Shown: positions 44,226 through 44,808 of the stretch, piece after piece | Layout of the letters: each line of letters opens with the position of its first letter | How positions within the stretch are numbered: the stretch's first letter is position 1 | Origin: Escherichia coli | Lineage (GTDB): Bacteria > Pseudomonadota > Gammaproteobacteria > Enterobacterales > Enterobacteriaceae | Strand: one strand, 5' to 3' | NCBI RefSeq assembly: GCF_003019035.1 | Contig: NZ_CP027447.1 | DNA: 64,000 nucleotides | The notes under the pieces: generated by a model | The model's database searches: none | What the model was told of the DNA's origin: nothing | The model's input: only the letters and a program-made list of their open reading frames with translations | Position numbers and translations under genes: made by a program

Positions 44226-44330
44226 TAACAAAAAACCCCGCCGGAGCGAGGTTTCGTCAGTCGCCTGCGGCTGGTAACCGCAAAGCACACTGTATTATGT
44301 CAACACTGAAAGTATACGTGTTCCGCGCAG
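44226..44330 (-). ncRNA. istR: Putative IstR-type antisense sRNA (antitoxin to tisB); boundaries approximate
   Basis: Plus strand 44287-44307 (CACACTGTATTATGTCAACA) is a near-exact direct copy of 44546-44566 (CACACTGTGTTATGTCAACA) in the tisB 5' region, so a minus-strand transcript here would be complementary to the tisB mRNA. GC hairpin plus T-run on the minus strand near 44228-44255. Confidence 0.4.
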
Positions 44331-44410
44331 AACGCGCAATTTCGGCACGAATTTTGACGTATTTAGTACATAGTTGAGTATCGATCACAGTTTTCGTTTT
44401 GTCCAAATAT

Positions 44411-44430
44411 TACTGTTTATTTATACAGTA
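44411..44430. promoter_or_regulatory. LexA operator (SOS box) with adjacent -10 element of the tisAB promoter
   Basis: TACTGTTTATTTATACAGTA is a perfect CTGT-N8-ACAG palindrome; TATAAT at 44437-44442. Confidence 0.7.
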
Positions 44431-44664
44431 AACTTCTATAATATCACTGTACGCAATGTGTTATGCGGGGGCCGCATCGTTACCCGGCGCACTAAGTCCT
44501 GGCTGAAACGGGTGGTGCCGTCAGCGCCTTAACCCCGCGTGAGCACACTGTGTTATGTCAACAAGCACAACGTTTCTCCTTGAGATACCGCGTGCACAAC
44601 AGCTGGCAACAGGCAGCGGAAAGGTACGTCAGCTGGCAGTGCTCCTGAACCACAGGAGACGCGT

Positions 44665-44754
44665 ATGAGCCTGGTGGATATCGCCATTCTTATCCTCAAA
44701 CTCATTGTTGCAGCACTGCAACTGCTTGATGCTGTTCTGAAATACCTGAAGTAA
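44665..44754 (+). CDS. tisB: SOS-induced type I toxin TisB (29-aa membrane peptide)
   Basis: ORF translating to MSLVDIAILILKLIVAALQLLDAVLKYLK; short amphipathic helix; downstream of the LexA box. Confidence 0.8.
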   Translation: MSLVDIAILILKLIVAALQLLDAVLKYLK

Positions 44755-44775
44755 TTCAGATTCAAGTCGCACTAA

Positions 44776-44808
44776 AGGGGAGCGGGTAACCGCTCCCCTT
44801 TCATATTT
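44776..44808 (+). terminator. Intrinsic terminator after tisB
   Basis: AGGGGAGCGG-gtaa-CCGCTCCCCT hairpin followed by a T-rich tail. Confidence 0.5.

Follow-up and report, generated by a model that had tools for sequence, protein, structure and literature searches.

The tisB/istR locus and its regulatory elements

The DNA analysed here is a 64,000-nt stretch (64 kb, "the window") of an Escherichia coli chromosome, and between ivbL and ysdE it carries a locus that the first-pass annotation had read as tisB-istR, with a perfect SOS box, a TATAAT element, and a 29-codon ORF for TisB. All of these elements are present (Table 1), and the assignment was borne out by family models and by synteny. 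In the Rfam scan, istR (RF01400) matched the minus strand at 44230-44359 with 150.1 bits (gathering score, 45) over model positions 1-130 of 130. The TisB peptide passed Pfam PF13939 (TisB_toxin; 37.6 bits, cut-off 25) and the NCBIfam equivalogs NF011340 (69.9 bits, cut-off 53) and TIGR04459 (61.5 bits, cut-off 38), the latter two over the full length of residues 1-29, and the RefSeq protein WP_000060506.1 carries the TisB annotation. The gene order ivbL, istR, tisB, ysdE, emrD is that of K-12 MG1655, where istR (IstR-1 and IstR-2) and tisB are annotated and likewise flanked by ilvB and ivbL on one side and by ysdE and emrD on the other; the sequence is 99% identical. Several human isolates, e.g., SCU-172, have exactly this segment (100% identity), and SMS-3-5 is among the closest matches, at 99.8%.

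The locus thus combines a 29-aa hydrophobic peptide of the TisB family; a divergent, non-overlapping gene for the IstR sRNAs, with tisB on the plus strand starting ~80 nt past the 5' end of IstR-2; ~21 nt of complementarity between the 5' tail of IstR-1 and the tisB leader, present as a 22-nt repeat that predicts a continuous duplex with one G·U pair; and a LexA box at the tisB promoter, the mark of SOS control. We are nearly certain that the window carries an intact copy of the canonical tisB/istR-1 type I toxin-antitoxin module of the E. coli chromosome, with the same regulatory parts as in K-12. The locus is ordinary and already known: no chromosomal type I toxin-antitoxin system is better characterised than tisB/istR-1, and the copy here equals the reference in every regulatory element.

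Table 1. Features of the tisB/istR locus, in window coordinates
Feature	Position	Strand	Remarks
IstR-1 antitoxin sRNA	44230-44304	-	Rfam istR match and mapped K-12 ncRNA annotation; 100% identical to K-12
IstR-2	44230-44369	-	140 nt, SOS-induced, 3' end in common with IstR-1; from K-12 annotation
IstR side of the 22-nt repeat	44284-44305	-	Transcript UGUUGACAUAAUACAGUGUGCU, the antisense tail; 44284-44304 (21 nt) lie inside IstR-1
IstR-1 promoter	44311-44339	-	-35 TTGCGC (44334-44339), 17-nt spacer, -10 TATACT (44311-44316); identical to K-12
IstR-2 promoter	44377-44405	-	-35 TGGACA (44400-44405), -10 GATACT (44377-44382); from promoter scan
LexA (SOS) box, TACTGTTTATTTATACAGTA	44411-44430		20-nt palindrome between the divergent istR-2 and tisB promoters; same in K-12
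tisB promoter -10, TATAAT	44437-44442	+	Identical to K-12
tisB (tisAB) mRNA	44449-44801	+	Probable start near 44449, placed from the -10 element; 5' UTR as in K-12
IstR-1 target/ribosome standby site in the tisB leader	44542-44563	+	G 44552 wobbles with IstR U (complement of 44294)
tisA ORF, 37 codons	44555-44668	+	ATG inside the IstR-1 target
tisB Shine-Dalgarno, AGGAGA	44654-44659	+	Ribosome-binding site (RBS) identical to K-12
tisB toxin ORF, 29 aa, MSLVDIAILILKLIVAALQLLDAVLKYLK	44665-44754	+	N2S relative to K-12; 28/29 residues identical
tisB terminator hairpin	44774-44801	+	12-bp perfect stem AAAGGGGAGCGG/CCGCTCCCCTTT, 4-nt loop

The LexA box is the sole match to TACTGT-N8-ACAGTA, with at most one mismatch allowed, in the 64-kb window, where 0.06 would be expected from shuffled sequence. 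It ends 6 nt upstream of TATAAT, the hexamer given as the tisAB -10 element (PMC11264685). The IstR-1 promoter hexamers are those listed for MG1655 in Table 1 of the same paper, which also gives the IstR-2 promoter hexamers and AGGAGA as the RBS (PMC11264685).

In the K-12 RefSeq annotation, IstR-1 spans 73 nt, equivalent to 44230-44302. Its length is reportedly 75 nt, and a 75-nt RNA with its 5' end at 44304 has exactly 21 paired positions with the tisB leader. In the predicted fold of IstR-1, the 5' tail is free and single-stranded and there are two stem-loops; the sRNA also has a terminator with a run of U. In the Rfam structure, the 5' extension of IstR-2 is paired with GUUGAC at the start of the IstR-1 tail (first helix, GUCAA/UUGAC), which fits the reports that IstR-2 does not repress tisB (PMC11264685).

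Alignment with K-12 MG1655 over 631 nt revealed eight substitutions. Two lie downstream of the IstR terminator (44223 and 44225); one falls at position +2 of IstR-2 (44368), its single difference from K-12, and one in the spacer of the istR-2 promoter (44394); one changes the second residue of TisB (44669, N2S); and three are found around the tisB terminator (44773, 44787 in the loop, and 44802). From the IstR terminator through tisB codon 1, only two bases differ, and there are none in IstR-1, its promoter, the LexA box, the tisB -10 element, the whole 5' UTR, or the RBS. The K-12 genes (b4618 for tisB and b4616 for istR-1) occupy the same site between ivbL and ysdE-emrD, with an ORF of the same 29-aa length and an identical standby/target site, G·U wobble included. 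The 100% identity of IstR-1 and of both promoters to K-12 suggests that IstR-1 would be made constitutively and tisB transcripts upon DNA damage. The sole coding change, N2S, is the normal E. coli allele, since a 2024 survey of >2,000 E. coli genomes found it to be the consensus, an 85% majority variant; in the same survey, the promoters, standby site, and RBS were almost fully conserved (PMC11264685). When overproduced, N2S TisB is toxic, at least as much as the K-12 peptide (PMC11264685).

The 22-nt repeat and its G·U pair

The complementarity between IstR-1 and the tisB leader takes the form of a direct repeat, AGCACACTGT[A/G]TTATGTCAACA, whose two copies differ only by A at 44294 versus G at 44552. 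The first-pass annotation had described a 20-nt repeat with one mismatch at 44287-44307 and 44546-44566; the repeat and its single difference stand, while its length is 22 nt and those coordinates were 3 to 4 nt off. No 22-nt repeat with at most one mismatch appeared in 30 shuffles of the 800-nt region. The target ends 91 nt before the Shine-Dalgarno sequence (44654) and lies ~100 nt upstream of it. In the RNAs, the IstR U (the complement of A 44294) faces mRNA G 44552 in a G·U wobble, and the duplex stays continuous. The predicted energy of the 22-bp duplex is -35.1 kcal/mol with the observed G·U, fully paired; it would be -35.1 kcal/mol with A-U, -37.0 kcal/mol with G-C, and -30.8 kcal/mol with a true mismatch at this position. 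Published descriptions give "21 nt of complementarity" (PMC4147584) and call the pairing "extensive, perfect" (PMC6690012); our literature search found no paper discussing a wobble in the IstR-1/tisB pairing.

The first-pass annotation had proposed that the imperfect position could be strain-specific tuning and had named a sequencing error as a possible refutation. On the tuning reading, the change would weaken antitoxin pairing in this isolate. The repeat copies do differ at one base, and a G-C pair in place of the wobble would add ~1.9 kcal/mol of predicted duplex stability. However, the pair is a G·U wobble rather than a mismatch, and comparison with the K-12 istR-1/tisB duplex returned the same two sequences, including the A/G difference. 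Allele counts point the same way. We searched 5,426 complete E. coli genomes with a 45-nt query that has G on the istR side and with the converse query, which has A on the target side; since the seed-based search with the G query cannot align to the A allele, any match denotes a G allele. The G query recovered no intact locus from the 5,426 genomes, its two matches being the deletion alleles of GMF054 and JNEC-KY178 described below, and the converse query picked out a single genome, CP61_Sichuan, among ~4,350 loci. The A/G combination was kept in all five full-length E. coli loci sampled from lower-identity matches. A tuning change peculiar to this isolate can therefore be given virtually no credence, and a sequencing error is ruled out, the difference being shared with K-12 and thousands of genomes.

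Some sequence variation does occur in and around the repeat copies. The common SNPs sit just outside the duplex, at the equivalents of 44564 and 44308, and a rarer one at that of 44583. CP61_Sichuan has A in both copies (extracted locus 155-176 and 413-434), which gives a 22/22 repeat and a perfect A-U duplex. In NMBU-W12E19, a rare T-to-G change on the istR side, at the equivalent of 44293, adjoins the wobble; it would set an IstR C against an mRNA U and thus create two adjacent non-Watson-Crick positions.

The history of the pair can be followed in other enterobacterial genera. A DNA pattern made from the invariant Rfam istR positions was used to scan one representative genome per species, yielding 14 true loci, in Citrobacter, Salmonella arizonae, Salmonella diarizonae, Pseudenterobacter, Siccibacter, Franconibacter, unnamed Enterobacteriaceae, and E. 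coli E69; three further matches, one in Agathobacter and two in Meiothermus, were discarded as chance. All 14 have a LexA-type box, CTG-N10-CAG, followed by a -10 element at the same offset. The leader copy of the repeat was readable in 12 of the 13 non-E. coli loci, 247 to 255 nt downstream and with 20 to 22 of 22 positions matching, so that the arrangement of istR, LexA box, -10 element, and leader repeat is kept in these 12; in 8 of them, the scan found a TisB-like ORF after it. The istR-side base is G in all 13 loci outside E. coli and A in the window, in K-12, and in E. coli E69, and the E. coli IstR U is therefore derived from an ancestral C. Taken with the E. coli allele counts, the ancestral G in these 13 loci marks the G·U wobble as derived and fixed across E. 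coli, neither specific to this strain nor an error.

Outside E. coli, the repeat matches at 22/22 positions in Salmonella diarizonae only. The single imperfections of the other genera are an mRNA C against an IstR A at repeat position 15 or 17, or a G·U at position 2. At position 15 (TTATG or TTACG), both copies change together in several lineages, and mixed intermediates are seen; such paired change is the pattern expected if RNA-RNA pairing has been maintained.

These data bear on whether the wobble is a species-level adaptation, in which a G·U in the middle of the duplex replaced the ancestral G-C near the RNase III cut and adjusts IstR-1 binding or cleavage. It would then have been selected through binding kinetics or cleavage and would shift the threshold for TisB-dependent persistence. 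The contrast between G in all 13 other loci and a fixed A in E. coli is consistent with this, as is the location of the wobble: with a transcription start at 44449-44451, position 44552 is ~+102 to +104, ~2 nt from the inferred +106 cut. On the other hand, the imperfections found at other positions in other genera resemble drift that has been tolerated, the wobble costs little predicted energy, one E. coli genome, CP61_Sichuan, has gone back to a perfect A-U duplex, and experimental work regards the pairing as "perfect" (PMC6690012). We therefore consider adaptation unlikely. That different single imperfections are tolerated in other genera argues for neutrality of the wobble; the module as a whole is conserved yet accommodates one imperfect pair, which argues against a special role for the E. 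coli one.

The same leaders inform the status of tisA, whose ORF matched no Pfam or NCBIfam family and for which no experimental evidence of translation is reported (PMC11264685). Its ATG (44555-44557) is ACG in 8 of the 12 readable leaders from other genera, and beyond E. coli, Salmonella, and some Citrobacter, tisA is thus not a conserved ORF, in keeping with the reports of non-translation.

We also asked how far the similarity extends. The repeat as the core of a longer ancient duplication was rejected: local alignments of the flanks were no better than those of shuffled sequence, which scored at least as high as observed in 51 of 500 cases on the left and 406 of 500 on the right. Because flank similarity is at chance level, only the 22-mer part of a long interaction of -78 kcal/mol returned by RNAduplex carries meaning. 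The repeat core occurs a third time as a partial copy, CAATGTGTTATG, at 44454-44465, or ~+6 to +17 in the primary tisB mRNA. This copy matches the target core at 11 of 12 positions and may be a chance occurrence. Processing at +42 takes it off.

Proposed regulation and related type I systems

Because the sequence is identical to that of K-12, the mechanism published for tisB standby, 5' processing, and IstR-1 action (PMC6690012; PMC5668327; PMC4147584) should apply here; for this strain, we infer transcription, processing, standby binding, cleavage, and toxicity from that literature. LexA bound to its box would keep the tisB promoter off, and DNA damage would relieve this repression, giving a tisB mRNA of roughly 350 nt. 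The primary transcript would be translationally inert, with its 5' end folded onto the leader, until loss of the first 41 nt frees the single-stranded standby site. There, 30S subunits would load with the help of protein S1 and then slide to the structured tisB RBS. Constitutive IstR-1, transcribed from 44304 to 44230, would pair its 5' tail with the standby site over 21 nt, block standby binding, and trigger cleavage by RNase III, leaving a +106 mRNA that is inactive. Once tisB mRNA is in excess of IstR-1, the 29-aa TisB would be made and inserted into the inner membrane, causing depolarisation and favouring persister formation.

The +1/+42/+106 scheme of tisB mRNA is published (PMC5668327; PMC6690012), and with a start near 44449, +42 processing would fall at ~44490 and RNase III would make the +106 cut at ~44554. 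In the predicted fold of the +1 transcript, the 5' end pairs with part of the target. By minimum-free-energy folding, the mean unpaired probability of the target rises modestly from 0.38 in the +1 form to 0.46 in the +42 form; folding alone thus points in the direction of the +1/+42 processing switch and does not convincingly reproduce it.

Several other systems share parts of this design. In dinQ/agrB of E. coli, a LexA-controlled small membrane toxin likewise faces a divergent, non-overlapping antisense sRNA, and an inert primary mRNA is activated through 5' processing (PMC5668327). However, AgrB remodels the mRNA so as to hide its Shine-Dalgarno sequence instead of competing with a standby ribosome, and neither the peptide nor the RNAs are related in sequence to those of tisB/istR-1. 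zorO/orzO and shoB/ohsC are also divergent type I pairs in which the antitoxin binds far upstream of the RBS, and zorO shares 5' processing, a standby site, and subsequent RNase III cleavage (PMC5668327). In contrast to tisB, LexA/SOS control is not reported for these two pairs (PMC11264685; PMC5668327), which lie at other loci and have other sequences; the locus here matches the TisB and istR family models specifically.

Presence, absence, and disruption of the module across E. coli

The locus is present in 4,358 of the 5,426 complete E. coli genomes and absent from ~1,060 of them (~20%), in line with an earlier report of strains without tis/istR (PMC11264685). One of the genomes without it is that of strain 131, in which ~155 bp of unrelated sequence between ivbL and ysdE (extracted locus ~578-735) stand in place of the equivalent of 44178-44867. 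The module is thus a presence/absence polymorphism within E. coli. Together with the G·U wobble and the N2S allele, this is the useful outcome of the analysis: a set of corrections that averts a false lead on strain-specific tuning.

Rare disrupted alleles were also observed. In GMF054 (locus 401-422) and JNEC-KY178 (513-534), an exact 258-bp deletion between the 22-nt repeats has left one hybrid copy; both istR promoters, the LexA box, the tisB promoter, and ~93 nt at the start of the leader are lost, and the tisB annotation persists. As the deletion ends at both repeats, the pairing repeat also serves as a deletion substrate. In 675SK2, the gene for an ISL3-family ISKox3 transposase (locus 1752-2972) lies between ivbL and tisB. 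The alignments of 675SK2 and ECO12 to the window break near the equivalent of 44417, inside the LexA box, and if this is the insertion point, tisB would be cut off from its SOS operator and from istR.

Given that ~20% of complete genomes are without the module and that deletion and ISL3 (ISKox3) insertion alleles exist, the copy here might be a decayed, non-functional remnant. This is very improbable: its promoters, LexA box, IstR-1, leader, RBS, ORF, and terminator stem are intact, none of these elements differs from K-12 except for the coding N2S change, and the N2S peptide is no less toxic than that of K-12 (PMC11264685).

Beyond tisB, many strains, e.g., EC21Z-083 (locus ~1030-1200), have ~139 extra bp between tisB and ysdE, at the equivalent of ~44830-44860, that are absent here. 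The insert, which looks like a small intergenic repeat element, has within it a GC-rich stretch of strong self-complementarity (…CCCCTCGCCCCTTTGGGGAGAGGG…).

On the other side, the first-pass annotation had placed the locus directly beside an accessory insertion. A low-GC island is indeed nearby, at ~38540-41900 between uhpA and ilvN, with 31 to 41% GC (~35%) against ~55% in the flanks, but it ends near 41900, and ilvN, ilvB, and ivbL occupy the ~2.3 kb that separate it from the IstR terminator. K-12 is not known to carry this island. It carries two paralogous minus-strand ORFs, 38640-40154 (504 aa) and 40369-41664 (431 aa), with 27% identity (E = 5e-25). Sequence searches of Pfam, PADLOC, and PDB gave no match for the island proteins. 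Where the second ORF lies, the annotation of the otherwise identical SCU-172 has two shorter CDS instead.
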